DNA from: an uncultured Faecalibacterium sp.
Lineage (GTDB): Bacteria > Bacillota > Clostridia > Oscillospirales > Ruminococcaceae
DNA length: 64,000 bases
Direction of reading: 5' to 3'
Assembly: GCA_934548045.1 (NCBI GenBank)
Contig: CAKTEM010000007.1
Location: 57,105 to 121,104 of the forward strand
The notes beneath the pieces were generated by a model. The model did not search any database, was not told the origin of the DNA, and saw only the letters and a program-made list of their open reading frames with translations. Each line of letters starts with the position of its first letter. Positions within the stretch are counted from its first letter, which is position 1. This document shows positions 1,155 to 53,874 of the stretch, one piece after another. The translations under genes and the position numbers were made by a program.

Positions 1155-1365
1155 AGCGGTTTCTCCTTTGCCTTCTCAAATCTTTTTTATCGGCAAGAGG
1201 AGACATGGCCCCGTTGCCGCAAATCACTGTCCTGAACTTCATCTTCCTGAAGCATGGGCTTATCATATCACTTCAGTTTCCTGAAGTCAATAGCCTTTTG
1301 AAAGTTTTTTGAATTTTGTAGGGGAAAGTGGTAGAATAAGCCTGAACTCCCCCAGTCACAGCTTT

Positions 1366-1470
1366 GCTGTGCCAGCCCCCTCGGGGAGGGGGCCTTGACG
1401 CGTGTGACAGTCGGCTGTAAAAGGCTCTCCCTTTGGGAGAGCTGTCGGGTGAATACGAGACTGAGAGGGC
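1366..1470. repeat. Partial copy (right terminus) of CCCTCTCAG-TIR intergenic element (copy F)
   Basis: Contains ggctctccctttgggagagctg...gagactgagagggc, identical to the right ends of copies B and E; followed by TA and then the ybaK RBS. Confidence 0.5.
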
Positions 1471-1497
1471 TAGGATGCTGAAAAGAGGTAAACGATA

Positions 1498-6856: not shown

Positions 6857-8038
6857 ATGAACGAACTGGCATTAAAGTATGGCTGCAACCCCAATCAGAA
6901 GCCCAGCCGCATTTATATGGAAGATGGCTCTGACCTGCCGGTGACTGTCCTGAACGGCAAGCCCGGCTACATCAACTTTCTGGACGCGCTGAATTCCATC
7001 CAGCTGGTAAAAGAGCTGAAAACGGCCTGCGGCCTGCCGGCAGCGGCTTCGTTCAAGCATGTTTCTCCGGCCGGTGCCGCGCTGGGCCTGCCCCTGACCG
7101 ACGTCGAGCGGAAGATGTACCACATCGCACCCGATTTTGAGCTGTCTCCGCTGGCCTGCGCTTATGCCCGTGCCCGTGGTGCGGACCGGATGTCCTCGTT
7201 CGGTGACTGGATCGCCCTCTCCGAGGTCTGCGACGTGTCCACCGCAAAGCTCATCCAGCATGAAGTCTCGGACGGCATCATTGCTCCGGGCTATGAGCCG
7301 GAAGCTCTGAAAATTCTTGCCAGCAAGAAGAAGGGCAACTACAACGTGGTCGCCATCGACCCGAACTACAAGCCCAACCCCGTCGAGCATAAGCAGGTCT
7401 ACGGCATCACCTTCGAGCAGGGCCGCAACGAGCTTGCTATCAATGCCGACACCATGCTGAACAACTTCGTCACCGAGAACAAGACCGTGACCGAGGAGCA
7501 GAAGCGTGACCTTATCATCGCCCTCATCACCCTGAAATACACCCAGTCCAACAGCGTCTGCTACACCTACAACGGCCAGACCATCGGCGTCGGCGCAGGC
7601 CAGCAGAGCCGCATCCACTGCACCCGTCTGGCCGGTCAGAAAGCCGACAACTGGCAGCTCCGCCACATGGACAAGGTGCTGAACCTGCCCTTCCGTGACG
7701 ACGTGGCAAAGCCTAACCGGGACAACGCCATTGATGTTTACATCGGCGACACCCCGGAGGATGTCATCGGCGATGATGTCTGGGCGGAGACCTTCACCGA
7801 ACAGCCCGAGCCCCTGACCGCAGAGGAGAAGAAAGCTTATCTGAGCGGCATCACCGGGGTCAGCCTTGGTTCTGATGCGTTCTTCCCCTTCGGCGACAAC
7901 ATCGAGCGCGCACGCCGTTCGGGTGTGACCGCCATTGTCCAGCCCGGCGGCTCCATCCGCGACCAGCAGGTCATCGACACCTGCAACAAGTACGGCATCG
8001 CGATGGCGTTCTGCGGCATCCGGCTGTTCCATCACTAA
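6857..8038 (+). CDS. purH: AICAR transformylase (PurH C-terminal AICARFT domain only)
   Basis: 393-aa ORF with LKYGCNPNQ (PurH LRYGENPHQ motif) and the AICARFT fold; lacks the N-terminal MGS-like IMPCH domain; RBS aaggagg. Confidence 0.8.
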   Translation: MNELALKYGCNPNQKPSRIYMEDGSDLPVTVLNGKPGYINFLDALNSIQLVKELKTACGLPAAASFKHVSPAGAALGLPLTDVERKMYHIAPDFELSPLACAYARARGADRMSSFGDWIALSEVCDVSTAKLIQHEVSDGIIAPGYEPEALKILASKKKGNYNVVAIDPNYKPNPVEHKQVYGITFEQGRNELAINADTMLNNFVTENKTVTEEQKRDLIIALITLKYTQSNSVCYTYNGQTIGVGAGQQSRIHCTRLAGQKADNWQLRHMDKVLNLPFRDDVAKPNRDNAIDVYIGDTPEDVIGDDVWAETFTEQPEPLTAEEKKAYLSGITGVSLGSDAFFPFGDNIERARRSGVTAIVQPGGSIRDQQVIDTCNKYGIAMAFCGIRLFHH

Positions 8039-8040
8039 TA

Positions 8041-8333
8041 GCCCTCTCAGTCAATGCTTCGCATTGCCAGCTCTCCCAAAGTGAGAGCCATTGGCAGGTC
8101 GGGTAAGTCTGAGCAGGTCAATAAATGCTTGACGAGACATTCAGCGCGATGGCCTTGCGGACAAGATTCACGGCATCTAAGATAGTGCAAGTTCAGTAGC
8201 TGTGAATCCAGACAGCAGGGCACTCACGCTTGCGTAAGTGAAAGCTTTGTTCAGTCAGCAGAAAGTGAGCCGATATGCCAATGCCTCTCACTTTGGGAGA
8301 GGTGGCACGCCGTTAGGCGTGACGGAGAGGGTC
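8041..8333. repeat. Full-length copy of CCCTCTCAG-TIR intergenic MITE/REP-like element (copy A)
   Basis: 293 bp between purH stop and purD RBS; left end TA|gccctctcag, internal hairpins ctctcccaaagtgagag and cctctcactttgggagagg, central gggccttgcgg and agctttgttcagtcag blocks shared with copies B, C, D, E. Confidence 0.75.
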
Positions 8334-14870: not shown

Positions 14871-14998
14871 AAACTCCCTCCGTCATTCTTTCAGAATGAC
14901 ACCTCCCTCAAGGAGGGAGGCTTTGGCTTTACCGTTACGAACAGGCTCCCTCCCCGAGGGAGCTGTCACCGAAGGTGACTGAGGGAGTTGCATAAAAT
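14871..14998. repeat. Short variant intergenic palindromic element (copy G) related to CCCTCTCAG family
   Basis: Starts 4 nt after the purB stop; terminal inverted repeats aactccctc / gagggagtt; four internal perfect hairpins (gtcattctttcagaatgac, cctccctcaaggagggagg, ctccctccccgagggag, gtcaccgaaggtgac). Confidence 0.55.
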
Positions 14999-17111: not shown

Positions 17112-17185
17112 TGAAAGCTGTCGGCTGCTGCCGCCAGCACAGAACCGGCCGCTCGACCCCGATGCTGGCCGGTTCTTTTTGGGTA

Positions 17186-17320
17186 GTCCTCTCAGTCAAT
17201 GCTCCGCATTGCCAGCTCCCCCAGAGGGAGAGCCATTGGCAGGCCGGGCAGGTCTGAGCAGAACGAGAAGGTTCAAAGCAGAATTTCAGAGCGAGGGCCT
17301 TGCGGATAAGGGCAGGTAAC
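17186..17320. repeat. Left-half copy of CCCTCTCAG-TIR element (copy C)
   Basis: tagtcctctcagtcaatgctccgcattgccagctcccccagagggagagccattggcaggccgggcaggtctgagcag...gggccttgcgg is nearly identical to the left halves of copies A and B; the right half is missing. Confidence 0.6.
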
Positions 17321-20560: not shown

Positions 20561-21955
20561 ATGAACCGTAAAGTTTCGGTCGGAATGATGGTGACCATCG
20601 TCATTCTGGCAATCACTGTGACCTTTTCCATCACCATGCTGGCGGCGATGCGGCTGTTTGACAGCACCGTTACCAGTGTCAAGGAAAAGGAGAGCATGTA
20701 CAATAAGATCGCCGAGGTCGACCGGTATGTGCGCAGCAACGACTACTATACCATCGACGAGACGACGCTGTACGACCGCCTGACGGCCGGCTATCTGCTG
20801 GGTACCGGCGACAAGTACGCCCGGTATTACACCGCCACCGCCTATGCCGAGCTGCTGGACACCCAGAACGGCACCCGGATGGGTATCGGCGTGGAACTGG
20901 GCATCAACCAGTCCGGCTATGCCAAGGTCACCAAGGTCTACGATGACTCTCCGGCACAGGAGGCAGGTATCAAGGTCGGCGATTACATCACGGCCATCGA
21001 CGGCACCGATGTCAAGAGCCTGTCCAATGTGGACGCTGTGCAGGCCCGTCTCCGCGGCGAGGCCGGTACGACGGTCAATGTGACCTGGCTGGACAGCGAG
21101 GCGGCAGAGCATACCGCTGACCTGACCCACTCCGGCTACACCTCCACCACCGTGGATTACCAGATGCTGCAGGACAACGTGGGTTACATCAAGATCCGCC
21201 AGTTCGACGGCACCACGCCCAGCGAGCTGGACTACGCCATCCGCAGCCTGACGAACAACGGTGCGCTGAGCCTTGTCTTCGACCTGCGTGATAACGGCGG
21301 CGGCCTCCTTGAGGATGCCATCACCTGCATCGACCTCATTGTGCCCGAAGGCACGCTGGCCTACGCCGAGGATAAGAACGGCAACCAGACCCTTCTGGGC
21401 AGCAGTTCCTCGGATACCACCGTTTCGCTCCCCATCGTCTGCCTTGTCAACGGCAACACCGCAAGCGCGGCAGAACTGTTCGCAAGCAGTCTGCGCACCC
21501 TGAATGACGCAAAGCTGGTCGGCACCACCACGATGGGCAAAGGCACCATCCAGAGCAGCCCTCAGCGTCTGTCGGATGGCAGCGCAGTCGTCGTCACGGT
21601 GGCAAAACTGGTCTGCGGCGACGGTTCCAGCTTTGATGGAACCGGCCTGTCGGTGGATGTGGACCGTCCGCTGACTGCCGACGAGCAGAACGCTTACTAT
21701 GATTACACCGTGGACACCGACCCCCAGATCCAGCGCGCGGTCAGCACCGCCCAGCAGATGAGCGGTACGACCACCGTCGGCGGCGTGAACGACGCGGCCA
21801 ACAGCGACGCTGCGTCCAGTGAAGCAGCCGATGGCGAGAACGCTGAAAGCGACACCACTTCCGAAAGCGAATCCACCGATGCAGCCTCCAGCGAGGAGAC
21901 GGCGGAGAGTGAAGCAGCATCGGAAGAAGCGGCGTCTTCTTCGGAAGCATCCTAG
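20561..21955 (+). CDS. ctpA: Carboxyl-terminal processing protease (S41 family) with PDZ domain
   Basis: N-terminal TM, PDZ (GIKVGDYITAIDG) and S41 motifs (DLRDNGGG, catalytic Ser in NGNTASAAE, K in TMGKGT); acidic C-terminal tail. Confidence 0.85.
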   Translation: MNRKVSVGMMVTIVILAITVTFSITMLAAMRLFDSTVTSVKEKESMYNKIAEVDRYVRSNDYYTIDETTLYDRLTAGYLLGTGDKYARYYTATAYAELLDTQNGTRMGIGVELGINQSGYAKVTKVYDDSPAQEAGIKVGDYITAIDGTDVKSLSNVDAVQARLRGEAGTTVNVTWLDSEAAEHTADLTHSGYTSTTVDYQMLQDNVGYIKIRQFDGTTPSELDYAIRSLTNNGALSLVFDLRDNGGGLLEDAITCIDLIVPEGTLAYAEDKNGNQTLLGSSSSDTTVSLPIVCLVNGNTASAAELFASSLRTLNDAKLVGTTTMGKGTIQSSPQRLSDGSAVVVTVAKLVCGDGSSFDGTGLSVDVDRPLTADEQNAYYDYTVDTDPQIQRAVSTAQQMSGTTTVGGVNDAANSDAASSEAADGENAESDTTSESESTDAASSEETAESEAASEEAASSSEAS

Positions 21956-22250
21956 CCCTCTCAGGCAAAGCCTGTCGGCTTTGCCAGCTCTCCCAGGGGG
22001 GAGAGCCATTGGCAGGCCGGGTAGGTTCTGAGCAAGTCGAAAAAGTCTAATTGAAGTTTTAAAGCGTGGGCCTTGCGGACTGGATTCACGGCAGCTAAGA
22101 TAGTGCATCTTGTTTCGCAGCTGTGAATCTGGATAGCAGGGCCCACTTGTTTGTGTAACAGATAGCTTTGTTCAGTCAGTTGCAAGTCAACCGATTCGCC
22201 AGTGGCTCTCCCTTTGGGAGAGCTGTCGAGCGGATGCGAGACTGAGAGGG
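21955..22250. repeat. Full-length copy of CCCTCTCAG-TIR intergenic element (copy B)
   Basis: 296 bp; its first G completes the ctpA TAG stop; left gccctctcag, right ctgagagggc followed by TA; internal blocks collinear with copy A. Confidence 0.75.
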
Positions 22251-22273
22251 CTATACAGGAAAGGAAGGAATCT

Positions 22274-23218: not shown

Positions 23219-24523
23219 TTATGCAGAGATCTCTTTCATCAGGTAGGCGATGCGAGTTGTGCTGTCTTCTTCTCGTATCGTTTCACCGGTGCGCAGGGAT
23301 TGGAGCAGATGGATCGCAGGCAGGTAACAGGCCTTGGCGGCACAGGTCAGGTAGCTGATGGCAAGCGGAGTGTCACAGGGCAAATACTCTCCGATCAGGA
23401 GAGCTATCCCGAGGTAGTAACATGCGCTCGGCGAGCCTAACCGGGAAGCATACCTCAGGTTTTTAAACCGTTCGTCCGACTCAGAAGTGATCAGAGCAAG
23501 CAAGAGATAACGGCGCGAATCGGTGGTGGGCAGCCGCTCCGCCAACCGTTTGGCGTCATTCAATTCGCCGCGCTGAAAAGCGAGAAGGGCTCTTCTGGCT
23601 CTTCTGGCATCGCTGCGCAGCTGTTCCGGGTCAGTGGTTGTCAGCAGTTTCTGAAATGCTTTTGCCGCCTGTGCCGCAGAGATACGCAGAACGGGGTTTT
23701 TCCGCAGCATCTTGAGGAGCAGGGAATACAGTGCGTCACTTTGCGTTTTTACCAAGGCGAGACAATGGTCGATTTCACGATTCAGTTCATTTTCGTCCGC
23801 GATATAAAGATACCTTCCGGTGAAGAGTTCGAGCACTGTTATTGCGAGCGAATACACGTCACCTTTGCCCGGGATACACAGCTTGTGGCGGAGTCTTTCG
23901 GGTGGGATATGCCCGGGAGCGCCGATGATGGTTTGGGCTTCTCCTGGAACTACCTCCTTCGATGCGCCCAAATCGGCGAGAACGATTTCAAACGTGCCGT
24001 CATTGTTTTTGCGAACCAGAAGATTGGGCGGCTTGATGTCTCTGTATTCGCAGTGACTTGTTTCCAAAAACTGGATGGCACAGGAAATGGTGTATCCAAC
24101 CTGAACAGCCAACTTCTGCGCAGACAGGCCCATTTCGGCAGATGCATGCTCCAATGAAGTCAGCTGCTCTTCGATAAAAATATAGACCTGCCCCGTTTTG
24201 GATGCGTTTTCCGGCATATAGACACGAGCGTCCAGCAGAGTCGGAAAAAACCGCGATGATGAGAACTTTTTTAGATGTTCCAGCTCTCGCTTGGCGTTAC
24301 GCAGCATGATCTCACGGTAGTGGGCAGCTCCGGCGTTGTCCAAGTGCACCTCAGGTGGAGGGTCGATCGCAATCATCTTGCACACTGCCGGTTGGCTTGT
24401 ATTTCTCAAAACCCAGACCGAGCCTTGTCCGCCTCCGCCAAGATAATCCGCTAATTCGTAGGAACAGTCAGGAAAGGCTTCGTGCAGTACATAGGCGGCC
24501 TGTTGGTCTGTCAAGTGTCTCAT
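23219..24523 (-). CDS. Hanks-type Ser/Thr protein kinase, cytoplasmic, with C-terminal Sel1/TPR-like repeats (no PASTA, no TM)
   Basis: G-loop LGGGGQGSVW, catalytic K in AVCKMI, catalytic loop YRDIKPPNLLV, DLG (DFG-like), PPE; C-terminal 150 aa with Sel1-like A.YYLG....G...D...A..Y...AA..G periodicity. Confidence 0.75.
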   Translation of the reverse strand: MRHLTDQQAAYVLHEAFPDCSYELADYLGGGGQGSVWVLRNTSQPAVCKMIAIDPPPEVHLDNAGAAHYREIMLRNAKRELEHLKKFSSSRFFPTLLDARVYMPENASKTGQVYIFIEEQLTSLEHASAEMGLSAQKLAVQVGYTISCAIQFLETSHCEYRDIKPPNLLVRKNNDGTFEIVLADLGASKEVVPGEAQTIIGAPGHIPPERLRHKLCIPGKGDVYSLAITVLELFTGRYLYIADENELNREIDHCLALVKTQSDALYSLLLKMLRKNPVLRISAAQAAKAFQKLLTTTDPEQLRSDARRARRALLAFQRGELNDAKRLAERLPTTDSRRYLLLALITSESDERFKNLRYASRLGSPSACYYLGIALLIGEYLPCDTPLAISYLTCAAKACYLPAIHLLQSLRTGETIREEDSTTRIAYLMKEISA

Positions 24524-24534
24524 TGATATTCCTC

Positions 24535-25251
24535 CTATTTTTCTACCTGTATTTTGATAACCGTGCAGTTGTCTGAATAGCGTCTGAGCGTGGACAGCTG
24601 AACGATTTGTTTTACGCTCAGGTTAAAACGCAGAGCCAAAGCGAGCATTTTTTCACGCATGATGCCATCGGACGCAAGCAGGATGACATCTCCGGGCTGT
24701 ATATCGAGTGTACCATAAACAAACTCTGGTTCTCGAAAAGTTCCGGCATAAGCGAGAAGCCGGTTGCCATCATGCATCGGTTTAAAAAGAGGGTGGAGCG
24801 TGTGTTTCCTGTATAAAAGGAGTGGGGAGTCACCGATGCAACAAAAGTGCATTTTATTATTTTTCAATGCGATGGCACTGATCGTTGTTGCGGTTGCAAT
24901 ACAGCCGAAAGAGCGATTTAGAGCGGAGAGCTTTTCGCTGGCATCGGAACAGGCATTTGCGATCTTTTGCTTTACAATTTCAGGGTCACTCATGTCGCCG
25001 CACCAGTCTTCTTTCGTGTAAAATGAACGCTGGACTTCGGATGCGGCCATGTTTGAACCTAATGCGGCATGAGAACAACTGCCTACACCGTCACAGACCC
25101 CCAAAACGATGGGCTCTGCATCTGTGTCGAGAATCACAGGCGATACAGTCTGTTCCGGGGCGGCGTCGATGGGCCGTTCGCCCAAGAAAAACACATCATC
25201 CTGACTGGCACGGCTTCCCTTGCTGGTGGCAGCTTCGATTTTAAGCTTCAT
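24535..25251 (-). CDS. PP2C-family Ser/Thr phosphatase
   Basis: 238 aa, metal-binding motifs DDVFF, GVCDGVGS (DGxGG-like), LLASDGI; ATGA overlap with upstream PBP gene stop. Confidence 0.75.
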   Translation of the reverse strand: MKLKIEAATSKGSRASQDDVFFLGERPIDAAPEQTVSPVILDTDAEPIVLGVCDGVGSCSHAALGSNMAASEVQRSFYTKEDWCGDMSDPEIVKQKIANACSDASEKLSALNRSFGCIATATTISAIALKNNKMHFCCIGDSPLLLYRKHTLHPLFKPMHDGNRLLAYAGTFREPEFVYGTLDIQPGDVILLASDGIMREKMLALALRFNLSVKQIVQLSTLRRYSDNCTVIKIQVEK

Positions 25252-26633
25252 ACGATATTTTTCTCCTCTTCTAAAATATAGTTGATGAATTCTGCAGCGA
25301 TTGGCTTCAATTGGTTGGACGAGCCATCGACGTTTTCTCGGGAAATTGCACCGGCAAATCGCCTTCCGCTGGGGCTTTGCAATGCAAATGCGAGAAAAAC
25401 ATTTGATTTATCGCTGTTTTCTTTTGTTGCTGTGCCTGTCTTGGCGACAACGATGCCGCCGGGAACGCTCAGATGATAACCAGCGGCGGTCTCTGCCAGT
25501 GCCTGAAGCAACTGTTGCCGAACAACGTCGTCTGGGAGAGCTGTGCTGAGACTGTTGCCGCCATCCTCATGATGGACGACAAGACCGCTCTCCCGTGTGA
25601 CTTGCTGCACCATAAAAGGCTGGGTCATCTGCCCTTCCGGATGCAGGACGCTGCCGAGCATAAGGGCCATGTGCAGCGGCGAAGTCTGAACCGCTCCTTG
25701 ACCTATACAAAGCTGACTCCAACCCCCGATATCGTCTGGATCAAAAATGATTCTCGGATTTAATGTTGCTCCCCAGTCCAAGACGACAGTTTTATTGTAA
25801 CAAAATTCTTCGAGCGTTCTTAAAAAACATTCACTCCCGACGCGAGGTGTCATGTCGGCTGCGTATGTGTTTACGCTCTTCACAAGCATGGTTTTAAGCC
25901 CCATGTCGCCATACACCGAATGACCGGCGTTCTGGATTCCTGTTTGTGAGACCCCGGTATCTGTGTAATTTTGGGGAATGTTTGACGAGATGATCGCCGC
26001 AGCATCGACAACTTTTTGCACGCTGCCGGGTTGAAGACAGCATGTCGTCGAAGGAGGATACCAGAAGTTTGGCTGATTATTGTACGCTGCCATTTTGTCT
26101 GCGGTGATGCCGTTTGCGTTAAATTCTACAGTTTCGCTGGGGCGGTCGGCCAATGTGATAACGGCTCCGGAATCGACATCGAGAAGAATGACGGAACTCC
26201 GATACCCGGCGGTCAGTCCATACGCTTTTCGTTGAAGATTTGCACAAATTGTCGTTGTCAGAGTGGAACCGTGTCCGTGAGCTTTCTCCGCATAACAGAG
26301 TTCATTTTCATACAGCTTTCGCAGCCCAGCCAGGCCAAAACTCTTGGAACGGTAGCCGCAGATGTTCGTGTAGCTGTTATCAAGAACCATTGCCGGATAA
26401 CCCTCCTGAGAGGCTTGTGTAAAGGGCGTGCCGTCTGCGGCAGTAATGATACCCTCATAACTTTGGCCTCGGAGCTGTTCGCGTGCGTATGCGTTTTTCC
26501 GTGCGTCCACGGCAGGGTCTGCACCCGGAAAGAGTCCGCTCTGCTTGATGGTAGTAAAGCCCAATCCAATTGTAGCGGCCATGGAACTGAGAGCAAGGAG
26601 AAAGGCTCTTCTGGAAAAATATTCATTCTTCAT
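25248..26633 (-). CDS. Penicillin-binding protein (class-B-like transpeptidase domain, membrane/Tat-like anchored)
   Basis: SxxK (SVQK), SxN (SVN) and KTG (AKTGTA) motifs in order; N-terminal RRAFLLALSSMAATIGLG anchor; preferred start MKNEYF at 26633 (GAGG 9 nt upstream), alternative ORF-track start 26729. Confidence 0.7.
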   Translation of the reverse strand: MKNEYFSRRAFLLALSSMAATIGLGFTTIKQSGLFPGADPAVDARKNAYAREQLRGQSYEGIITAADGTPFTQASQEGYPAMVLDNSYTNICGYRSKSFGLAGLRKLYENELCYAEKAHGHGSTLTTTICANLQRKAYGLTAGYRSSVILLDVDSGAVITLADRPSETVEFNANGITADKMAAYNNQPNFWYPPSTTCCLQPGSVQKVVDAAAIISSNIPQNYTDTGVSQTGIQNAGHSVYGDMGLKTMLVKSVNTYAADMTPRVGSECFLRTLEEFCYNKTVVLDWGATLNPRIIFDPDDIGGWSQLCIGQGAVQTSPLHMALMLGSVLHPEGQMTQPFMVQQVTRESGLVVHHEDGGNSLSTALPDDVVRQQLLQALAETAAGYHLSVPGGIVVAKTGTATKENSDKSNVFLAFALQSPSGRRFAGAISRENVDGSSNQLKPIAAEFINYILEEEKNIV

Positions 26634-28047
26634 TTTTTGTACCTCGTTTATAAAAGAATCGCGGCGTAGCTGGTGCAATATCCGACGACGAAGCCAGTAA
26701 AATACCAGATAAAAAGAACGTACAAACAAGAGAAGTTCCGCCGAGGCTCAGGAATGGACATGTCAGACCCATGATAGCGCCGATCCCCAGAGCAGAAAGG
26801 CTATTCAGAAAGAAGTGCGCTTCTATCGTTATGATACAACCCAGACTCAAAACACCGGGAAAGCTTGGACGGCTGATGTTTACCAAAGCCCAGAGCAAAA
26901 GAGCAAAGAAGACGAGCAGGAGAACAATGAAAAAGGCGTAGCCGAATTTTCTGATAGTAGTTACGATTATGAAATCGTTCCTGGCTGCTGGAACAAAGAC
27001 CTCGCTGTCCGTGCCAAACCAACCGCTTAACAACAGACTCTTGCGAGCAGCATCGAGTTGATAGGTGTCTGTTGCCTGCGAAGGGTCGATACGGGTGATA
27101 ACTTTAGTGTAGATGAGACTGCCGAGCCGAAAAAAACCACGGCCGCCAAGCTGCGAACAGACCTTGCAAACCAAGTAGCCAGCATATACACCGAAGCCCA
27201 TGACGGCACAGCCTAGGGTGGGCCATCTTAACTGGCGAACAGACAGGAAGAGAATACAGATGGATGTGAAAAGAATCAGGACAGCCGTTGAAAGCTCATT
27301 CACACAGGCGAGAAAAACCATGTGCAGAGCCACCGTCTCGAAAGCGATGAGGGTTCGTTGCTTGTCGCTCTTTTCCGGCATGGTACAAGCTCGCGCGACG
27401 GAAATCACAGAGAGAAGCCGGGTCACTTCTGTCAATTGGAGACTGGTACTCCCAATATAGACCCAGTTTTTTGTTCCATGGCTGGCCGGCATCAGAAACA
27501 AAACTCCGTACATGAGAGAGGAAAGGGTGTTCAGAAGCCTTACACTGCAGCGAGGTTCGAGCCGGGATAAATAGAAATAACTAATCGCGCCGACCAGACC
27601 GGCACCAGTAGCAGCGAAATGATGACGGAGCAATTCAGCTGCCGTTGAGGTGTCCAGCGAGGTCTGGATCATCAGACCGGCGACAACAAGGATAAAAACC
27701 AAACGAAAAGCGATGAAATCCACGTTATAAATTGCAGCTAAAATAGCAGCTGTGAGAGCCAATGGGAGCAGGTAACGGAGCATCACAAGATATACACTTC
27801 CTGCCCAAACACTGCATTTAAAGACCAGCGCACCGCCGAGGGCATAAGCTGCAAGGACAAAAATCATGTTTCGGAAGATATTGTGCCGAACCTTTTTTGC
27901 GAGAAGCTTCCGGATGATATAAATAGGCTGCTCCCACAGCCCGTGGAAAAGAAACCGGATCAGCTCGGAAAGTGCGAGCCTGAGGTCTTTCATGAACTGG
28001 CAAAACCATTGTGCTGCCAGTTTTGCAAAGGCAGTGAGAGCAGCCAT
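26623..28047 (-). CDS. SEDS-family peptidoglycan glycosyltransferase (RodA/FtsW/SpoVE-like)
   Basis: 474-aa polytopic (about 10 TM) protein with FtsW/RodA family sequence and a large extracytoplasmic loop near the C-terminus; 11-bp overlap with the PBP start. Confidence 0.75.
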   Translation of the reverse strand: MAALTAFAKLAAQWFCQFMKDLRLALSELIRFLFHGLWEQPIYIIRKLLAKKVRHNIFRNMIFVLAAYALGGALVFKCSVWAGSVYLVMLRYLLPLALTAAILAAIYNVDFIAFRLVFILVVAGLMIQTSLDTSTAAELLRHHFAATGAGLVGAISYFYLSRLEPRCSVRLLNTLSSLMYGVLFLMPASHGTKNWVYIGSTSLQLTEVTRLLSVISVARACTMPEKSDKQRTLIAFETVALHMVFLACVNELSTAVLILFTSICILFLSVRQLRWPTLGCAVMGFGVYAGYLVCKVCSQLGGRGFFRLGSLIYTKVITRIDPSQATDTYQLDAARKSLLLSGWFGTDSEVFVPAARNDFIIVTTIRKFGYAFFIVLLLVFFALLLWALVNISRPSFPGVLSLGCIITIEAHFFLNSLSALGIGAIMGLTCPFLSLGGTSLVCTFFLSGILLASSSDIAPATPRFFYKRGTKNEE

Positions 28048-28082
28048 TTTTCAATCAACTCCTAAAATTTGTAATGTGTTTC

Positions 28083-28946
28083 TCAGTGACGTGCCTGCAT
28101 ACCGACAGCGTTGTTGTTCTCACTCTTGGGAGCGGCGGACGGCAACGGTTCGTCTAAGATAATGCTTTCGCCACGCTTGTCTGAAAAATCAATAATAATC
28201 GGATTCCCGTTATTTTCAGCATACTTGTGATTGATCGACAAGGCCAAAGGGAGTCCGTTCACATAGAACACCGGCTCGTGGCAATATTCGGTAATACTGG
28301 AGACTTCAATATCCTTCGTTGTGTCGTAGGGCCGGAGATCCGGTTTGTGGTTCGAGCCTATGTCCTGCCGAATCACATTAGAGGAAGAAAAACGCAGGTA
28401 AAATTTTTTGTCGGTAATATCACGGAAGAGATAGATGGGGGTCGTGAGGTTCTTTGCCAATGCACCACAATTGTAGCGAGAGAGCGTGATCTCCTGCTTG
28501 CAGTGGGGGTCCTGCTTGGTCATCTTCAAATTATGGTAAGAGATAGAAATGAAATCTCCCGGATTCAGGTTGCCGTCGTTGAGTTCAATGATAGTGCGAT
28601 GTTTTTTGTAATCGAAGACATTCAGCAGATACCTCCCGTAGGCTTCGGGCTGGATGGGCTGGCGAGGTTCTTCATCGTAGTCATACGGTGCATCCGGGGT
28701 GTCGTCAGAAGTGTCATCGCTGCTGTCCAGAACGAGATCCTTCAGCTTGTTAAAAAAATTCTGGAACAGGCTCTGGATACTGAAATCTGCGCTAGACTTA
28801 CGATGCTTTTCGAGAAAGATTACAAAAATTACTGCAACAACAATCACCAAAAACAGCTGGAAGAGGGTCATGCCGGCACCGGAGCTGCTGCGTGCGGCGG
28901 TCTCCGTGATGGAAGAAGCGGTGGATTCGATACTGGAAGCGTCCAT
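28083..28946 (-). CDS. Hypothetical single-pass membrane protein with acidic linker and about 180-aa C-terminal domain (first gene of kinase/PBP operon)
   Basis: TM helix LFQLFLVIVVAVIFVIFL, D/S-rich linker (SSDDTSDDTPDAPYDYDEE), C-terminal globular region; no recognisable family. Confidence 0.5.
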   Translation of the reverse strand: MDASSIESTASSITETAARSSSGAGMTLFQLFLVIVVAVIFVIFLEKHRKSSADFSIQSLFQNFFNKLKDLVLDSSDDTSDDTPDAPYDYDEEPRQPIQPEAYGRYLLNVFDYKKHRTIIELNDGNLNPGDFISISYHNLKMTKQDPHCKQEITLSRYNCGALAKNLTTPIYLFRDITDKKFYLRFSSSNVIRQDIGSNHKPDLRPYDTTKDIEVSSITEYCHEPVFYVNGLPLALSINHKYAENNGNPIIIDFSDKRGESIILDEPLPSAAPKSENNNAVGMQARH

Positions 28947-29359
28947 AAGGTTATTCTCCTTTTTATTTAGTAGACTTGCCCTTGACTTCTTTTTGGAGCA
29001 CCTTTATCATAGCAAAAAATTCCGACAGGAATTCAAAAAAGATTGAACACTATAAAGTTGTTGCTGACGCAGATTTGAACAATGATGTGGCGCGAAAACC
29101 AGCGTTGACTTCGGAAAAAAGAAAAATACCCTGCTTTTCGAGCGTAGAAGTTCTAACCACGTTCTAAAAACAGGGAGAATTATTTTGAAATGCAAGATAA
29201 CAAAATAGGCAGCTAAGGCATAAACAAAAAGCCCCTTGGGAATCTGCCGCAAAATGAGAATGTCACTGACAAGTTCATTCGCGGCCCCCTAAGGAGCATT
29301 TTGGATGTTATATACTTTTAGAAATTGCTCAAATGATCGTCTTGACCGATGTTTCTTCC

Positions 29360-30367
29360 TCATTCATAATCAATCGGCAAAGTCGGCAGGCCATTGAGGT
29401 CGAGGCCGGCGGTATGACCGGCGATGTATTGATAATAGCCCTGAGCGGCGATCATGGCACCATTATCCCCACAGAACTTGAGTTCGGGCAGGTAGACTTT
29501 CGCGCCGAGCTTCTGGGCTCCGTCGTTGACGAGCTGGCGCAGGCGGCCGTTCGCAGCGACACCGCCGGCCAGACAGACCTGTTTTGCGCCGGTGTCGGCT
29601 GCAGCCAGCAGAAGCTTTTCGGCGAGGATGCCTGCGATGCGCTCCTGAAAGCTTGCGGCGAGGTCAGGCACATTGACCTCGGTGCCCTTCATCTGTGCCT
29701 GATTGACTTCGTTCAGGACGGCGGTTTTGAGGCCGGAGAAGCTGACGTTATACTTACCCTCGACGTGCGGCACCGGCAGGCGGTAGGCCTTCGGGTTGCC
29801 GGTCTTGGCGGCGTTGGCGACGCTCGGGCCGCCGGGATAGGGCAGGCCCAGCGTCCGCGCCACCTTGTCGAACGCCTCACCTGCGGCGTCATCGACGGTG
29901 TGGCCGAGGATATGATAGTGGGTGTAGTCCAGCACCTCAACGATGTGGCTGTGTCCGCCCGACGCCACAAGGCAGAGGAAGGGCGGTTTCAGCTCCGGGT
30001 GGGTCAGGTAGAGGGCGGCGATGTGGCCGCGCAGGTGATGCACCGGGACCAGCGGCTTGTTTGCGGAGTAGGCCAGCCCCTTGGCGAAATTGACGCCCAC
30101 CAGCACCGCACCAATCAGGCCGGGCGCAAAGGTGACGGCGACAGCATCCACGTCGTCGATGGTCTTGCCTGCGTCCAGCAGAGCCTTTTTGACGGTGGCA
30201 CTGATGAACTCGCAGTGACGGCGGCTTGCGATTTCGGGAACGACACCGCCGTAAAGTGCCTGTTCCTTCACGCTGGTCGAGATGACGTTGCTCAGCAGCT
30301 TTCTGCCATCCTCGACCAGTGCTGCGGCGGTCTCGTCGCAGGTGGATTCGATACCTAAGATGATCAT
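29360..30367 (-). CDS. tsaD: tRNA N6-adenosine threonylcarbamoyltransferase
   Basis: Kae1/TsaD family (ILGIESTCDET, HHLRGH, VAASGGHS, CGDNGAMIA). Confidence 0.9.
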   Translation of the reverse strand: MIILGIESTCDETAAALVEDGRKLLSNVISTSVKEQALYGGVVPEIASRRHCEFISATVKKALLDAGKTIDDVDAVAVTFAPGLIGAVLVGVNFAKGLAYSANKPLVPVHHLRGHIAALYLTHPELKPPFLCLVASGGHSHIVEVLDYTHYHILGHTVDDAAGEAFDKVARTLGLPYPGGPSVANAAKTGNPKAYRLPVPHVEGKYNVSFSGLKTAVLNEVNQAQMKGTEVNVPDLAASFQERIAGILAEKLLLAAADTGAKQVCLAGGVAANGRLRQLVNDGAQKLGAKVYLPELKFCGDNGAMIAAQGYYQYIAGHTAGLDLNGLPTLPIDYE

Positions 30368-40512: not shown

Positions 40513-41427
40513 ATGAAAATCATTGTTACAGGCTGCAAGGGTCAGCTGGGTACCGAGATCATCAAGCAGCTGCGCGAGGGCAAGAGCGAGATCGGCACGA
40601 TCCCCGAAAAGCTGCTGAACGCGACCGTCATCCCGGTAGACCTGCCCGAGCTGGATATTTCCAACTATAAGATGGTGGACGAGTTCATCCGCCGTCAGCG
40701 TCCGGATGTCATCATCAACTGCGCTGCGTTCACCAACGTGGACGGCTGCGAGGTCAACCACGACGCCGCTTTCAAGGCAAACGCCCTCGGCCCTCGCAAC
40801 CTTGCACAGGCTGCAGAAAAGACCGGCGCACGTCTGGTGCATGTCTCGACCGACTACGTCTTCTCCGGCCGCGAGAACGGCGGCGTCGCACAGGACGAGG
40901 CCACCATTCCCGGCCCCATCAGTGCCTACGGTTCCACCAAGCTGATGGGCGAGAAGTACGTCGAGCAGTTCTGCCACCGTCACTTCATCATCCGCACCGC
41001 ATGGCTGTACAGCTACTATGGCAAGAACTTCGTCAAGACCATCGTCAACGCTGGCCGCAAGTTCGGCAAGCTGGAAGTCGTCAACGACCAGTGCGGCAAC
41101 CCGACCAACGCGGTCGATCTGGCACACGAAATTCTCCAGCTCTGCGTGACCCACGAATACGGCCTGTATCACTGCACCGGCGAGGGCATCTGCTCCTGGT
41201 ATGATTTCGCATCCGAGATCATCCGTCTGTCCGGCGTGGATGCAACGGTTGCTCCCTGCACCAGCGAGGAGTACAAGACCAAGCACCCGGAGAGCGCAGA
41301 CCGCCCGAAGTGGAGCGCACTGGACAACCGGATGCTTCGCTGCACCGTCGGCAACGATGTCCGCCCCTGGCAGGACGCCCTCAAGTGCTTCTTTGAGCAT
41401 TGGGATGGCGACAATGGAATGAAATAA
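40513..41427 (+). CDS. rmlD: dTDP-4-dehydrorhamnose reductase
   Basis: MKIIVTGCKGQLG Rossmann N-terminus, SxxxK with YGSTK, 304 aa. Confidence 0.85.
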   Translation: MKIIVTGCKGQLGTEIIKQLREGKSEIGTIPEKLLNATVIPVDLPELDISNYKMVDEFIRRQRPDVIINCAAFTNVDGCEVNHDAAFKANALGPRNLAQAAEKTGARLVHVSTDYVFSGRENGGVAQDEATIPGPISAYGSTKLMGEKYVEQFCHRHFIIRTAWLYSYYGKNFVKTIVNAGRKFGKLEVVNDQCGNPTNAVDLAHEILQLCVTHEYGLYHCTGEGICSWYDFASEIIRLSGVDATVAPCTSEEYKTKHPESADRPKWSALDNRMLRCTVGNDVRPWQDALKCFFEHWDGDNGMK

Positions 41428-41527
41428 CCCTCTCAGACGCTTCGCGCCAGCTCCCCCAGAGGGGGAGCCTTTGGCATGTCGGTTCACATCTGCGCCATAC
41501 GGCAGAGCGTGGGCCTTGCGTGTGAGG
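41428..41527. repeat. Truncated copy (left portion) of CCCTCTCAG-TIR element (copy D)
   Basis: Begins immediately after the rmlD TAA: ccctctcagacgcttcgcgccagctcccccagagggggagcc...gggccttgcg. Confidence 0.55.
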
Positions 41528-41560: not shown

Positions 41561-42625
41561 ATGAAAACTTATCTTATTACTGGCTGCGCCGGCTTTATCG
41601 GCTCCAACTTTGTCCACTATATGCTGAAAAAGTACCCCGAGATCCTGCTCGTCAACCTCGACAAGCTGACCTATGCAGGCAACCTCGAGAACCTGAAGGA
41701 CGTCGAGGGCGACCCTCGCCATGTCTTCGTTCAGGGCGACATCTGCGACAAGGAACTGGTCGAGGGCCTGTTCGCAAAGTATGATTTCGATTATGTCATC
41801 AACTTTGCTGCTGAGAGCCACGTTGACCGCTCCATCAAGAACCCCGAGATCTTCGTCCAGAGCAATGTCATGGGTACCGTGAACCTGCTCCAGCGCGCCA
41901 AGGAAGCCTGGTACGACGCAGACGCAAAGACTTGGAAAGAGGGCAAGAAGTACGTTCAGGTCTCGACCGATGAGGTCTACGGCGCACTGGGTGCCGAGGG
42001 CTACTTCATGGAGACCACTCCGCTCTGCCCCCACAGCCCCTACTCTTCCTCCAAGGCAAGCGCAGATATGTTCGTTATGGCGTTCCACGATACCTACGGT
42101 ATGCCCATCAACATCACTCGCTGCTCCAACAACTACGGCCCCTATCAGTTCCCTGAGAAGCTGATCCCCCTGATGATCAACAATGTCAAGCACCACAAGC
42201 AGCTGCCTGTCTACGGTGACGGTATGCAGATCCGCGACTGGCTGTATGTTGAGGATCACTGCAAGGCCATCGACATGGTCACCAACGGCGGCAAGATCGG
42301 CGAAGTCTACAACGTCGGCGGTCACAACGAGCGTCCGAACATCTTCATCGTCAAGACCATCATCAGCCAGCTGCATGACCGTCTGCAGGATGAGGGCATC
42401 AGCGAAGATCTTATCAAGCACGTCGCTGACCGTCTGGGCCACGACCGCCGCTACGGCATCGACCCCACCAAGATCAAGAACGATCTGGGCTGGTATCCCG
42501 AGACTCCGTTCGAAAAGGGCATTGTCCTGACCATCGACTGGTACCTCAACCACGAGGAGTGGATGGAGCATATCACCAGCGGCAACTACCAGAAATACTA
42601 TGAGGAAATGTACAAGAATAAGTAA
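41561..42625 (+). CDS. rmlB: dTDP-glucose 4,6-dehydratase
   Basis: ITGCAGFIGSNFV, YSSSKASAD (YxxxK), 354 aa. Confidence 0.9.
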   Translation: MKTYLITGCAGFIGSNFVHYMLKKYPEILLVNLDKLTYAGNLENLKDVEGDPRHVFVQGDICDKELVEGLFAKYDFDYVINFAAESHVDRSIKNPEIFVQSNVMGTVNLLQRAKEAWYDADAKTWKEGKKYVQVSTDEVYGALGAEGYFMETTPLCPHSPYSSSKASADMFVMAFHDTYGMPINITRCSNNYGPYQFPEKLIPLMINNVKHHKQLPVYGDGMQIRDWLYVEDHCKAIDMVTNGGKIGEVYNVGGHNERPNIFIVKTIISQLHDRLQDEGISEDLIKHVADRLGHDRRYGIDPTKIKNDLGWYPETPFEKGIVLTIDWYLNHEEWMEHITSGNYQKYYEEMYKNK

Positions 42626-42723
42626 TCGTTCCTGAACATTCCGATACGATAAAAACCAGCTCCTGCTTGGGCTATCCCGGCAGGAGCTGGTTTTGTTATT
42701 GATTCAGATAGATTGGGGAAAGG

Positions 42724-43557
42724 TCAGGACAGAGCCTGAGCTGCGATGATCACATAAGAATCATAATGGCTGGGTTCACGCGCAGCGGTGACCTCGAAGG
42801 AAGAGATTGCACCGGCTTTTAGCTGACTGATATAAGTGCTTTCGCCTGCCAGCAATTTGTCTCCTACCCGGTAGAAAATACGAATCGTGACATTCAAACT
42901 TCTGGAGCTTGTGTTTTCAATTTCGCCGGTAAAAGTTGTAAAAGGATTGTCATAAGGACTGCCATCATGACGGGAAGTGTTAGAAATCTTCAGTGCAGAT
43001 TGTTTTGGATAAGTAGGTTTTTCCATGCAATAACTGGGGTAACTGACTTTATAGCTGAGCGTTGAAGGAACACCGTTATCAACAATGATTTCTCCACCAA
43101 ATGTAATGGTATCGCCGGGTGCAACAGGAGGAATAAAGGATTGACTGGTACGAAGAACAGCACCGCTTGTGCTTTTTACGGTAAAGTTGAGGTTAGCATA
43201 GTTGAAAGACTTATAACGATTCGTATTTGTAACGATAAAAGTGTAGAAGACATGGTAATGCCCATTGCTGTCTATCGTGGAATAATAATCATAACTGTCA
43301 ATTCGCAGCTTTGTTGCAGTGCTTTCAGCGGTGGTCGAATCACTGGATGAGCTTGGAGAGCTGGAATTATTGGAAGACGAGTTATTCTCAGAAGAAGAAG
43401 CAGAGTTTGCCGTCGAGCTGGAATTGCTGGTAGATGAGCCATTAGACGGCGTGGAAGAGCTTGGGAGGGAAGAGGATGCCGGAGAGTCAGAACAGCCCGT
43501 GAAAACAGCGCAAGCCATTGCAGCCGCTAACACGGCTGCCGCAATCTTTTTTCGCAT
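42724..43557 (-). CDS. Lipoprotein with Ser-rich low-complexity linker and C-terminal beta-rich domain
   Basis: Signal plus lipobox MRKKIAAAVLAAAMACAVFTGC; about 70-aa S/N/T-rich linker; RBS aaggagg; lower GC than flanks. Confidence 0.65.
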   Translation of the reverse strand: MRKKIAAAVLAAAMACAVFTGCSDSPASSSLPSSSTPSNGSSTSNSSSTANSASSSENNSSSNNSSSPSSSSDSTTAESTATKLRIDSYDYYSTIDSNGHYHVFYTFIVTNTNRYKSFNYANLNFTVKSTSGAVLRTSQSFIPPVAPGDTITFGGEIIVDNGVPSTLSYKVSYPSYCMEKPTYPKQSALKISNTSRHDGSPYDNPFTTFTGEIENTSSRSLNVTIRIFYRVGDKLLAGESTYISQLKAGAISSFEVTAAREPSHYDSYVIIAAQALS

Positions 43558-43805
43558 GAAAAGTACCTCCTTGTATTTGCTGAAAAACAACAGAAAACTT
43601 ACCATTAACTTCATTATAGCAGAGTAGAAATAATAGCTCAAGAATGAAAAAATAGCAGAGATAACAAAAATCATATCGAAATTTAATGCAGGATAACAAA
43701 AAGGAGCCGCTGTCTCAGCACAGAGGTCTTTTTTTGTTGTGCGGTGGGCGGTGGTTTCTGGCGGCGAAGTGCTTTCTTCAGGTTGCCCTCTGGGGTGAAG
43801 TTATC

Positions 43806-43976
43806 TGATAAAGTTGCACTTTATTTTCGCTGATACGTTTAAAAAGCATCTTTATCAGGGTGATAAACTTCGGATATGCTGATAAAGTTGGAACTTTATC
43901 AAACAGAGCAACTTTTGCAAACTGATAAAGTTCAATATTTAAACATAGCTAAGTAATTATTCTCGAACTTTATCAC
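43806..43976. repeat. Array of 10-bp TGATAAAGTT motifs in direct and inverted orientation (iteron/operator-like)
   Basis: Direct copies at 43806, 43880 and 43923; inverted AACTTTATCA at 43891 and 43967; palindromic variant ctttatcagggtgataaactt at 43851-43871. Confidence 0.6.
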
Positions 43977-44010
43977 ATGATTCTCCACAGTACAGATACG
44001 AATACCACCG

Positions 44011-46418: not shown

Positions 46419-46492
46419 TGGGGATTTGCATAGTGGTAGTGCGGTAGACTCTGACTCTACTTGTGGGAGTTCGATTCTCTCATCCCCAACCA
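46419..46492 (+). tRNA. tRNA-Gln (anticodon CUG), CCA encoded
   Basis: Manual fold: acceptor TGGGGAT/ATCCCCA, D-arm GCAT/GTGC, anticodon stem GTAGA/TCTAC with loop CTCTGAC (U33, CTG, A37), T-arm GGGAG-TTCGATT-CTCTC, discriminator A, CCA. Confidence 0.8.
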
Positions 46493-46520: not shown

Positions 46521-46596
<76 letters not shown>

Positions 46597-53395: not shown

Positions 53396-53529
53396 TACAG
53401 AACCCTTTCGGTGACTGCATTTTAACACGCTAAAGTGCAGTTGTCAAGAAAGCCGAAGGGTTTTTGAGACTGAAAATATTAAGTTCGATGCTTTTCAAAA
53501 ATGAAGAAACTTCATTTTGGTAAGTAATA

Positions 53530-53871
53530 GCCCTCTCAGTCGCTCGCGCGACAGCTGTCCTCCCTCTGTCGCCTTGCGACATCTCCCTCCGACCGGAGGG
53601 AGTCTTTCCCAAAGGGGGAGCCACTGGCGTGTCGGGCAAGTCTGAGCAGGACGAAAAAGAGGTCATTTCTGGTAAAAGCGTGGGCCTTGCTGTCTACGGC
53701 AGCGGCTTCAAAATAAAAACAGCCCCACTGAATCGACTCAGAAGCATCTGAATCGAGACAGCGAGGCTATCATGCTTTATCTTATATTAAAGCTTGTTCA
53801 GTTTTGGCAAACTGTTCCGGCCTGCCAAGGGCTCTCCCTTTGGGAGAGCTGCCGCGAAGCGGCTGAGAGGG
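53530..53871. repeat. Full-length copy of CCCTCTCAG-TIR intergenic element (copy E)
   Basis: 342 bp; TA|gccctctcag ... ctgagagggc|TA; right end abuts the stop codon of the upstream SBP paralog (minus-strand reading taatagccctctcag, as at purH). Confidence 0.75.
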
Positions 53872-53874
53872 CTA

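Follow-up and report, generated by a model that had tools for sequence, protein, structure and literature searches.

The repeats treated here recall two groups of short bacterial repeats. The first comprises the repetitive extragenic palindromic (REP) sequences, their composites, known as bacterial interspersed mosaic elements (BIMEs) and REPINs, and the genes for REP-associated tyrosine transposases (RAYTs), reportedly treated by Nunvar in 2010, Bertels and Rainey in 2011 and Ton-Hoang in 2012. The second belongs to Escherichia coli, in which BoxC, the potential intrastrand triplex (PIT) elements (Hoyne, Maher and colleagues, 2000) and TM_ECO (Holder et al. 2015, PMC4666352) are one and the same repeat. 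Its consensus is CCCTCNCCC N3-6 GGGNGAGGG N3 GGGNGAGGG, and 23 copies occur in the 4.6 Mb of the E. coli genome; as single-stranded DNA (ssDNA), it forms a class II purine-motif triplex in vitro (PMC4666352). TM_ECO loci vary between strains, and no mobility functions have been found near them (PMC4666352). Here, we analyzed a stretch of 64,000 nucleotides from an uncultured Faecalibacterium sp. (contig CAKTEM010000007.1, positions 57,105 to 121,104; the whole stretch is called the window), the intergenic spacers of which carry a family of palindromic elements noticed in a preliminary description of the sequence. Our analysis showed that these elements are BIME/REPIN-like composites of a DNA module of about 50 nt. 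We regard it as fairly probable that they are non-autonomous, triplex-forming modules that are maintained or spread by a resident YcjD-like nuclease recognising the fold.

The family occupies seven intergenic loci in the window, with 12 modules in 64 kb. Copies A (8041-8331), B (21955-22251) and E (53530-53872) lie where they had been placed as full copies, and can be aligned end to end with a mean column identity of 73%. Each of the three is a long imperfect palindrome (RNA-fold z-scores −8.5, −11.5 and −10.9, respectively). A profile built from them found C (17184-17313, E = 3 × 10−30) and D (41423-41520, E = 3 × 10−11) as left halves, F (1416-1476, E = 7 × 10−12) as a right half, and G as a weak relative (E = 1 × 10−3). 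The count of eight copies given at first becomes seven loci (A to G), the number actually listed there, or 12 when modules are counted; the repeat family itself stands. The motif GCCCTCTCAG, with at most one mismatch, was found 16 times in the window vs 6.3 ± 2.5 times in shuffles. The subterminal hairpins and the conserved blocks GGGCCTTGCGG and TTGTTCAGT reported earlier are present in the copies. The profile and module counts, together with at least 120 stretches found in a scan of other genomes, bear out an interspersed, intergenic, REP-like family of elevated copy number.

That scan was made with the 21-mer GCTCTCCCTTTGGGAGAGCTG against one genome per species; the loci are short stretches, and the counts from the scans are counts among the matches listed. 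The hosts were Faecalibacterium, Faecousia, other Oscillospiraceae, Acutalibacteraceae, Lawsonibacter, Christensenellaceae and unclassified Clostridia, and the samples came from humans, ruminants and termites. Up to 10 contigs were matched in one metagenome-assembled genome (MAG). The matches are frequent at contig ends, and the family therefore probably breaks metagenome assemblies. At the loci outside the window, the 300-nt profile matched pieces of about 50 nt only. Such a piece, the module, has a general layout of a first hairpin (hp1) of 7-8 bp with a pyrimidine 5′ strand and a purine 3′ strand, a T, a second hairpin (hp2) of 4-8 bp, and a purine tail. In class I, the order is 5′-(C)TTG, hp1 [G/C]CTCTCCC-TTT-GGGAGAG[C/G], TG, hp2, (A)C, the tail [T/G]GAGAGGG, and then C or T (the sequence of a 48-nt module is CTTGGCTCTCCCTTTGGGAGAGCTGTCACCGCAGGTGACTGAGAGGGC). 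The four nucleotides ahead of hp1 were CTTG in 156 of 232 modules from other genomes, and AAGG, AAAG or AATG in Faecalibacterium. Modules occur singly, tail-to-tail (with spacers of 0-20 nt), head-to-head with differing linkers, nested, or with one hairpin shared. A minimal palindromic element of about 100 nt was seen at L105:1795-1900, in which a single hp1 serves a tail on each strand (tail′-hp2′-hp1-hp2-tail).

Both hairpins are kept by covariation. We found 145 distinct sequences of hp2, with stems of 4-8 bp and GNA or GNRA loops. Among 30 distinct modules of equal length, 97.6% of the hairpin cells were paired, and double-sided changes numbered 42 vs 12.5 ± 3.2 in shuffles (none of 500 shuffles was as high). 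On the strand of the purine tail, the loops of hp2 were GAA (25), GCA (14) and GNNA (GTAA, GCAA), and the complements TTC and TGC were found 3 and 0 times. Because these loops are strand-specific, one particular strand is the one that folds. Triloops of the form C-GNA-G are classic, very stable DNA mini-hairpins. In a Watson-Crick fold of the ssDNA, hp1 and hp2 pair and the tail is left free.

The tail does not copy hp1, nor is it complementary to it; it mirrors the purine strand of hp1, so that GGGAGAG-C/G is followed by T/G-GAGAGGG. The closing pair of hp1 and the first base of the tail co-vary as well: G:C went with T in 172 modules and C:G with G in 50, with 10 exceptions among the 232. 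Other classes are under the same rule (purine strand > tail: GAGGGGG>GGGGGAG, AGGGAGG>GGAGGGA, GGAGGGA>AGGGAGG, GGGGGAA>AAGGGGG, GGGGAGG>GGAGGGG, AGGGGGG>GGGGGGA), and about 18 sequence classes obey it. Exact 7+7+7 mirror matches were found 12 times in the window vs 0-1 times in ten Markov shuffles. In 1.95 Mb of loci, there were 1338 strand-readings of non-symmetric pyrimidine/purine (Y/R) hairpins, and a mirror tail, with A or T accepted for A, was located downstream in 462 of them. The three controls gave 87 (direct copy downstream), 58 (mirror upstream) and 77 (direct copy upstream). The recurrent departure from the rule is A>T (GAGGGGT, GAGAGGT, GAGGGAT, GGTGGGG, GGGTGAG). A best-tail substitution table with 2 mismatches was discarded as register noise in G-rich sequence, and was replaced by the exact and the A/T-degenerate counts with these controls.

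The mirror rule fits the pairing of an antiparallel purine-motif triplex, G*G:C and A*A:T or T*A:T (reverse-Hoogsteen T*A:T), as judged from sequence. The A/T alternation fits the purine strand only, since on the complementary strand it would disrupt a triplex of the pyrimidine motif. In RNA, triplexes of the purine motif reportedly fail to form (PMC4666352). From the pairing rules, the A/T alternation, this behaviour of RNA and the computed ssDNA fold, the module is most likely an ssDNA fold of two hairpins and a third strand, with the tail lying on hp1. When the DNA is single-stranded, both hairpins would fold, and the tail would settle in the major groove of hp1, antiparallel to its purine strand. 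The expected triples would be G*G:C and A*A:T or T*A:T, with T*C:G at the closing pair. The result would be an intrastrand triplex of class II (purine motif), like that of BoxC/PIT/TM_ECO, except that a hairpin takes over from the 3-nt second loop. Because of this replacement, an ITxF search, with loops of 1-6 nt, would miss the modules. The modules of the window, in which the blocks measure 7-8 nt and a hairpin of 14-25 nt serves as connector, do not match the TM_ECO consensus.

All open reading frames (ORFs) of the at least 120 genome loci were clustered. One small family recurred beside modules, at 9 of these loci: a DUF559 protein of about 125 aa (PF04480, E = 5 × 10−30). Its gene is placed between two modules. 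The tail of the upstream module points at the ATG, and the downstream module, in reverse orientation, encodes the last codons of the gene (..SPLSHLR*). At L094, a 51%-identical homologue is preceded by a module of another class. In a scan of metagenomes, the query was an alignment of eight DUF559 proteins including E. coli YcjD, and 80 loci (86-45% identity) were picked by protein homology alone. At 55 of the 80, a module was located within 120 nt of the gene. The module density was 4.6 per kb near the gene vs 0.23 per kb in the remaining flanks, a 20-fold difference; a tail-inward module was found upstream at 42 loci, downstream at 34 and on both sides at 26. Block-shuffled DUF559 loci gave zero Y/R hairpins. 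The module class shifts with the divergence of the protein, and BoxC-like short-loop forms appear in G+C-rich lineages. On viral contigs, modules were found for 16 of 31 hits at ≥40% identity, which are full-length small homologues, and for 4 of 49 partial, distant hits.

Two further observations concern these loci. Tandem module arrays lie on both sides of the DUF559 gene at L145 and L146 (period 188 nt) and at L160 (period 130 nt). The exact class I 21-mer is also found on 41 putative viral contigs of IMG/VR (L291-L331), several of which carry DUF559 homologues and modules.

The cognate protein is most likely a small YcjD-like DUF559 endonuclease of the Vsr/EDxHD fold, PD-(D/E)XK. The family is large (5101 matches at E ≤ 1 × 10−5). 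Its profile matches two structures in the PDB, the Neisseria endonuclease-like 3HRL (E = 2 × 10−24) and 3R3P, the catalytic domain of I-Bth0305I (E = 4 × 10−4), and the acidic and histidine residues D51, E62, D64 and H68 are invariant (alignment A3). PADLOC assigned the gene to no defence system. In one Faecalibacterium species, the gene has a fixed single place in the order aroC-aroE/K-aroQ-[modules]-DUF559-DAHP synthase-aroA (L332-L341, 10 samples). The corresponding part of the window, upstream of the DAHP synthase gene (1155-1497), is occupied by copy F and lacks a DUF559 gene.

In E. coli K-12, ycjD is the sole DUF559 gene. It ends in ..TCA CCC TCT CCC TGA (CCCTCTCCC-TGA), and a perfect canonical TM_ECO, by the published pattern, is located 168 nt downstream. 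By our own estimate from 23 copies in 4.6 Mb, the probability of such proximity by chance is roughly 0.004. The generic module finder missed this BoxC because its pyrimidine block contains G; it is recovered with the published TM_ECO pattern. In phylogroups A, B1 and C, ycjD takes the place of the eefRABCD operon (PMC12817139). A partial duplication of the 3′ end of ycjD, ggagacggtgctggagaatattc..., was seen between the ycjD stop and TM_ECO/BoxC (L127:5206-5420, NC_000913 1351205-1351419). In the literature, subscription-only papers not covered, we found no link between BoxC or intrastrand triplexes and ycjD or DUF559, and neither these repeats in Faecalibacterium nor the hairpin sequence.

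It may be explained in the following way that the modules and the gene occur together. The nuclease gene would have one constant place elsewhere in the genome, flanked by two tail-inward modules. The DUF559 nuclease would recognise the folded or extruded module and nick it. By analogy with RAYT and REP, nicking might drive the copying and turnover of modules. The elements themselves adjoin the stop codon of a gene with a tail and stop short of the following start codon by about 25 nt.

Several points weigh against this explanation. At 25 of the 80 DUF559 loci, there is no module within 120 nt, with many of the contigs short and the finder strict. The 64-kb window contains no DUF559 gene by tblastn, and its modules belong to at least four classes, which one nuclease may not serve. 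Adjacency and co-variation would fit action of either partner on the other, and host relatedness alone would give some co-variation. The 2-mismatch best-tail table was noisy, with G>A as the commonest change. For the modules, we infer folding in vivo from sequence, and in vivo dimethyl sulphate footprinting of E. coli TM_ECO detected no triplex (PMC4666352). The E. coli layout differs too: the intact TM_ECO points away from ycjD, and it is a degenerate block alone that overlaps the stop. At none of the sites compared between relatives (see below) was an insertion junction resolved.

A wider proposal is that intrastrand-triplex repeats, both BoxC/PIT and modules with a hairpin linker, make up together with YcjD-like DUF559 nucleases a second system on the pattern of REP/RAYT, and one that spans phyla. 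We put it forward tentatively, with chances somewhat short of even. If it is true, a Vsr-fold endonuclease recognises, maintains or spreads a triple helix folded from one strand, and the reverse-Hoogsteen covariation is evolutionary evidence that DNA triplexes matter in living bacteria.

The DUF559 gene could instead be a selfish, homing-type endonuclease gene that invaded tail-to-tail junctions, which it would target, as a parasite of the repeats and not the cause of their spread, the modules being moved otherwise or by recombination or replication errors. The gene lies exactly between two tails, tail-to-tail dimers resemble empty sites, and the profile matches the catalytic domain of I-Bth0305I and, weakly, PHROG families annotated as homing or HNH endonucleases. 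Frameshifted copies were found at L084 and L110, many homologues are on very short contigs, and E. coli ycjD sits where an operon was lost (PMC12817139). However, the Faecalibacterium gene is fixed in the shikimate operon across 10 samples, and E. coli likewise has a single conserved locus. The sampled MAGs contain at most one copy of the gene, compared with up to 10 module-bearing contigs in the same MAGs. This pattern is nearer to that of a resident single-copy gene such as RAYT, and a homing origin is thus unlikely.

The mobile or conserved unit is the module of about 50 nt, and not a fixed element bounded by terminal inverted repeats. A, B and E are head-to-head dimers, with tails outward, around a core of about 170 nt; C and D are monomers with the same head extension; F and G are pairs involving other classes. 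Their parts, in window positions, are as follows.

F, left module: 1347-1392, minus strand, other class; hp1 purine strand GAGGGGG-C, tail T-GGGGGAG.
F, right module: 1424-1479, plus strand, class I variant 1; tail end at 1469, then the extension CTAGGATGCT; ybaK ATG at 1498.
purH stop: TAA at 8036-8038, then TAG at 8039-8041, at the left end of A.
A, left arm: 8041-8089, minus strand, which bears the purine strand of this class I variant 1 module; tail CCCTCTCA at 8042-8049, hp2 at 8051-8066, hp1 at 8068-8089.
A, core: 8090-8283, plus strand, long head-to-head linker; contains GGCCTTGCGG, TTGTTCAGTCAG and a central hairpin, GATTCACGGC...GCTGTGAATC.
A, right arm: 8284-8331, plus strand, class I variant 2 module; hp1 CCTCTCAC ttt GGGAGAGG, TG, hp2 GCACGCCGTTAGGCGTGA, tail C-GGAGAGGG; purD ATG at 8359.
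G: 14874-14987, both strands, head-to-head class II pair starting 6 nt past the purB TAA; modules at 14874-14920, minus strand (AGGGAGG>GGAGGGA), and 14945-14987, plus strand (GAGGGAG>GAGGGAG).
C: 17186-17305, minus strand, long-unit monomer between the PucR-type regulator gene and ftsE; degenerate class I module with tail GTCCTCTCAG; head extension ending at GGGCCTTGCGG, 17295-17305.
B: 21953-22253, both strands, full head-to-head dimer; modules at 21956-22006 (minus strand) and 22205-22250 (plus strand); ksgA ATG at 22274.
S41 peptidase gene end: ..GAA GCA TCC TAG, ending at 21955, within the left tail extension of B.
D: 41428-41520, minus strand, long-unit monomer abutting the rmlD TAA (41425-41427); module at 41428-41467, minus strand, with hp1 GGGGGAG and tail GAGAGGG; extension up to GGGCCTTGCG.
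E: 53525-53877, both strands, full dimer with TAATAG/CTATTA ends; left module at 53531-53625 (minus strand), interrupted; right module at 53832-53871 (plus strand).
E, nested module: 53559-53602, in the left arm, other class GGAGGGA>AGGGAGG.
SBP gene: 53875-55908, minus strand; its stop is the TTA at 53875-53877, at the right end of E.

Two assignments of the preliminary description hold in part. F, listed as a partial copy, has a class I module on the right, whereas its left part is of another class (GAGGGGG). G, listed as a short variant, is a weak relative in a sequence class of its own (GAGGGAG/AGGGAGG). The genes flanking the seven loci are purH, purD, purB, rsuA-like, a PucR-type regulator, ftsE, an S41 peptidase gene, ksgA, rmlD, rmlB, two SBP_bac_5 paralogues, DAHP synthase and ybaK. 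The names purH, purD, purB, ksgA, ybaK and rmlD had been given correctly; the gene called ctpA corresponds to the S41 peptidase, and the SBP paralogues to SBP_bac_5. E separates these two tandem paralogues (51206-53254 and 53875-55908, minus strand), which have twin-arginine (TAT) signal peptides and are 73-77% identical in nucleotides.

The core of about 170 nt is lineage-specific, being found in this species, at L083 and weakly at few other loci. We considered whether it is a decayed DUF559 gene and rejected this, since tblastn against the window gave no match, the core is located between heads whereas the gene is located between tails, and the core is lineage-restricted. At L083, an independent copy (about 240-300, in the right arm of the element that follows purB) has a nested module of the same kind, placed as in E where hp1 meets hp2. 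Nesting of the gaaagaCTCCCTCC..GGAGGGAG..AGGGAGG class in class I, in two independent copies, suggests that one class targets another.

Some observations on the window are apart from the elements. The G+C content is 0.50 at 24000-30000 and 0.46 at 42000-44000, vs about 0.57-0.60 elsewhere, and these low-G+C stretches may be horizontally acquired or may hold surface-polysaccharide genes. Two tRNA genes (46419-46489 and 46521-46593) are the sole Rfam matches in the window; with Rfam 15, nothing else reached the gathering threshold. By E-value, the best Rfam match of copy A was MIR7533, at 33 bits vs a threshold of 230.

Relatives were then compared at the same sites. The window is syntenic with two Faecalibacterium MAG loci, L105 and L083, at 85-89% nucleotide identity, and a PurH identical to that of the window was found on human gut contigs, among them L002. 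Polymorphism between relatives was evident, as L002, L083 and L105 were unlike the window at the following sites.

Junction of purF and the gene before it: empty in the window (ctgTAATGtct); a 130-nt dimer and a new ribosome-binding site (RBS) at L105.
Junction of purN and the IMP cyclohydrolase gene: empty in the window; about 205 nt of another class at L105.
Downstream of ybaK: empty in the window; a 100-nt element with one hp1 for two tails at L105.
purH-purD: long-core dimer in the window; short-linker dimer at L083; unrelated palindrome at L002.
After purB: copy G in the window; a full long-core dimer abutting the TAA at L083.

No target-site duplication was visible at any of the orthologous sites compared among the window, L105, L083 and L002. 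Between filled and empty sites of L105 and the window, there was no clean junction, and the filled purF junction carries the new RBS in addition. Within the species, contigs with identical KsgA all carry B, which is thus fixed there, and the contigs with identical PurH gave one alternative allele, L002, which is not empty. The purH-purD spacer of L002 (L002:4183-4335) contains an unrelated palindrome of about 140 nt, GCGGAAGCTTTCTCCTCGGAC...GTCCTCGGAGAAACTTCCGC, instead of A, and its purH stop is TGA, compared with TAA-TAG in the window. This palindrome looks like a second, different element family at the same site.

The elements are placed at gene ends. Stop codons of ORFs of ≥100 codons cluster 1-30 nt before the tail end (55 cases, against a background of about 5 per 10-nt bin), and the head end shows no stop-codon peak in the 232 modules from other genomes. 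In the window, as had been described, elements start at or directly after stop codons: TAA-TAG-CCCTCTC behind purH and the SBP gene, and TAA|CCCTCTC behind rmlD. G starts close to the purB TAA, at a distance of 6 nt, not 4. The idea that an element may supply a stop codon applies to the S41 peptidase gene in the window and to the DUF559 gene elsewhere, in both cases together with the last codons; the extension ..AGCATCCTAG, which is common to F and the left end of B, encodes those of the S41 peptidase in B. The other tail of the window elements ends about 23-28 nt before the next ATG, which corresponds to 10-15 nt ahead of the RBS instead of the 20-40 nt given before. A role as terminator had also been proposed. 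A terminator scan found no terminator-like site in A, C and F and one weak match in a G hairpin (14902-14920); no T-run follows the hairpins, and the elements are therefore not intrinsic terminators. Consensus scans gave no support for a promoter role.

This placement would also suit elements that act mainly as RNA, i.e., as mRNA stabilisers or in translation tuning or attenuation, with the DNA features secondary. Effects at the mRNA level are shown for some REP/BIME elements of E. coli. Copies lie inside operons (purH-purD) with no terminator ahead, their RNA folds are very stable, and their tails adjoin stop codons and stop about 25 nt short of the following ATG. Moreover, it is the pyrimidine strand that the genes read into, and as RNA this strand might fold into a pyrimidine-motif triplex. 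However, close relatives differ at a given site in whether an element is there, in its class and in its linker, and each dimer contains both orientations. As for the purine strand, its GNA triloops and the alternation of A and T in its tail suit DNA and not RNA, there is neither an Rfam family nor a T-run, and PIT elements have no promoter or terminator activity in E. coli (PMC4666352). A primary role as RNA is thus quite improbable, and a side effect of the co-transcribed hairpins on mRNA is possible beside the nuclease-linked DNA module that we prefer.

The elements behave in the genome as classical REPs or REPINs moved by RAYT (a Y1 HUH transposase of the IS200/IS605 superfamily) would, being short structured extragenic units, single or paired in inverted orientation, at gene ends, with strand-specific hairpins that suggest a single-stranded form of the DNA. 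However, a conserved GTAG head is missing, and the head is (C)TTG or CCAAxG instead. Two hairpins with a mirror tail are absent from REPs, and the sole small gene repeatedly bracketed by modules at the at least 120 loci listed is DUF559, not a Y1 transposase. We consider a RAYT origin very improbable.

The flanks bear on the remaining alternative. The base after GAGAGGG was C in 142 and T in 71 of the 232 modules, and CTA followed in 8. Faecalibacterium tails continue as C[G/A/T]AG[G/C]..., with a lineage-specific extension GGGC[G/A/T]AG.... Because this position varies as C[G/A/T]AG, the CTA of the window is a variant of an extension internal to the element. The right end of A has no TA, and consistent TA flanks, as first described, were not confirmed. 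A miniature inverted-repeat transposable element (MITE) derived from IS630/Tc1-mariner, with GCCCTCTCAG ends bound by a transposase in trans and with insertion into, and duplication of, TA, had been suggested by the long inverted repeats of the arms and the TA on both sides of B and E and on one side of A (left), C and F, but it is scarcely tenable given that the TA is part of the element, that filled and empty sites show no duplication, that single-arm, tail-to-tail, shared-hairpin and nested forms leave no fixed unit, and that no transposase ORF family recurs among the at least 120 loci listed.

These results have several implications. Faecalibacterium and other Oscillospirales, important commensals of the gut, carry an abundant, previously unannotated repeat family. 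The BoxC/PIT class is extended to Firmicutes and to a hairpin-linker architecture, and a repeat class that has been without a protein partner since the 1990s gains a candidate one. Conversely, a candidate substrate emerges for DUF559/YcjD, a large family whose structures are solved but whose function is not known. Third-strand covariation by triplex rules in about 18 classes is also rare sequence-level evidence of a selected intramolecular DNA triplex.

We finally compared the elements with known systems. Like REP, BIME and REPIN, they are short, structured and extragenic, come singly or as inverted dimers with varying linkers, and lie behind stop codons. As with REP and RAYT, a single-copy gene is bracketed by inverted units, the sequence of the unit co-varies with the protein clade, and the fold is strand-specific, pointing to ssDNA. 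However, the bracketed gene here encodes a Vsr-fold PD-(D/E)XK nuclease (DUF559), not an HUH Y1 transposase. The modules are without a GTAG head, and each consists of two hairpins and a predicted triplex-forming tail, whereas a REP is one imperfect palindrome. Like IS630/Tc1-mariner MITEs, the full copies measure about 300 bp, have long inverted arms, lie between genes and have no coding capacity. Unlike such MITEs, they show no TA duplication, no fixed unit and, among the at least 120 loci listed, no matching transposase, and their arms are self-contained modules that are also found alone. The bracketed protein has PF04480, the 3HRL (NGO0050) and 3R3P (I-Bth0305I) matches and the invariant acidic and histidine residues in common with Vsr, I-Bth0305I and NGO0050. 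Unlike these, it is a stand-alone protein of about 120 aa with no extra DNA-binding domain, and its gene is outside any intron or intein and has no neighbouring cytosine methyltransferase.

The likeness to BoxC/PIT/TM_ECO concerns the class II order on one strand, i.e., pyrimidine block, loop, purine block, connector and mirror purine block. The G/A-rich alphabet is also the same (CCCTCTCCC/GGGAGAGGG/GGGTGAGGG in BoxC vs CTCTCCC/GGGAGAG/GAGAGGG in the module), as are the tolerance of T opposite A:T, the strictly intergenic location, the palindromic dimers and the strain-variable loci. Neither has a known function or mobiliser. On the other hand, the module blocks are 7-8 nt vs 9 nt, the connector is a covarying hairpin of 12-25 nt vs a 3-nt second loop, and in the modules T*C:G or G*G:C is conserved where hp1 closes. 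The hosts of the modules are Oscillospirales (Firmicutes), compared with Proteobacteria and Cyanobacteria, and many module sequence classes coexist in one genome. A linkage to DUF559 is found for the modules and is not reported for TM_ECO in PMC4666352. The BoxC-type class itself was already known.

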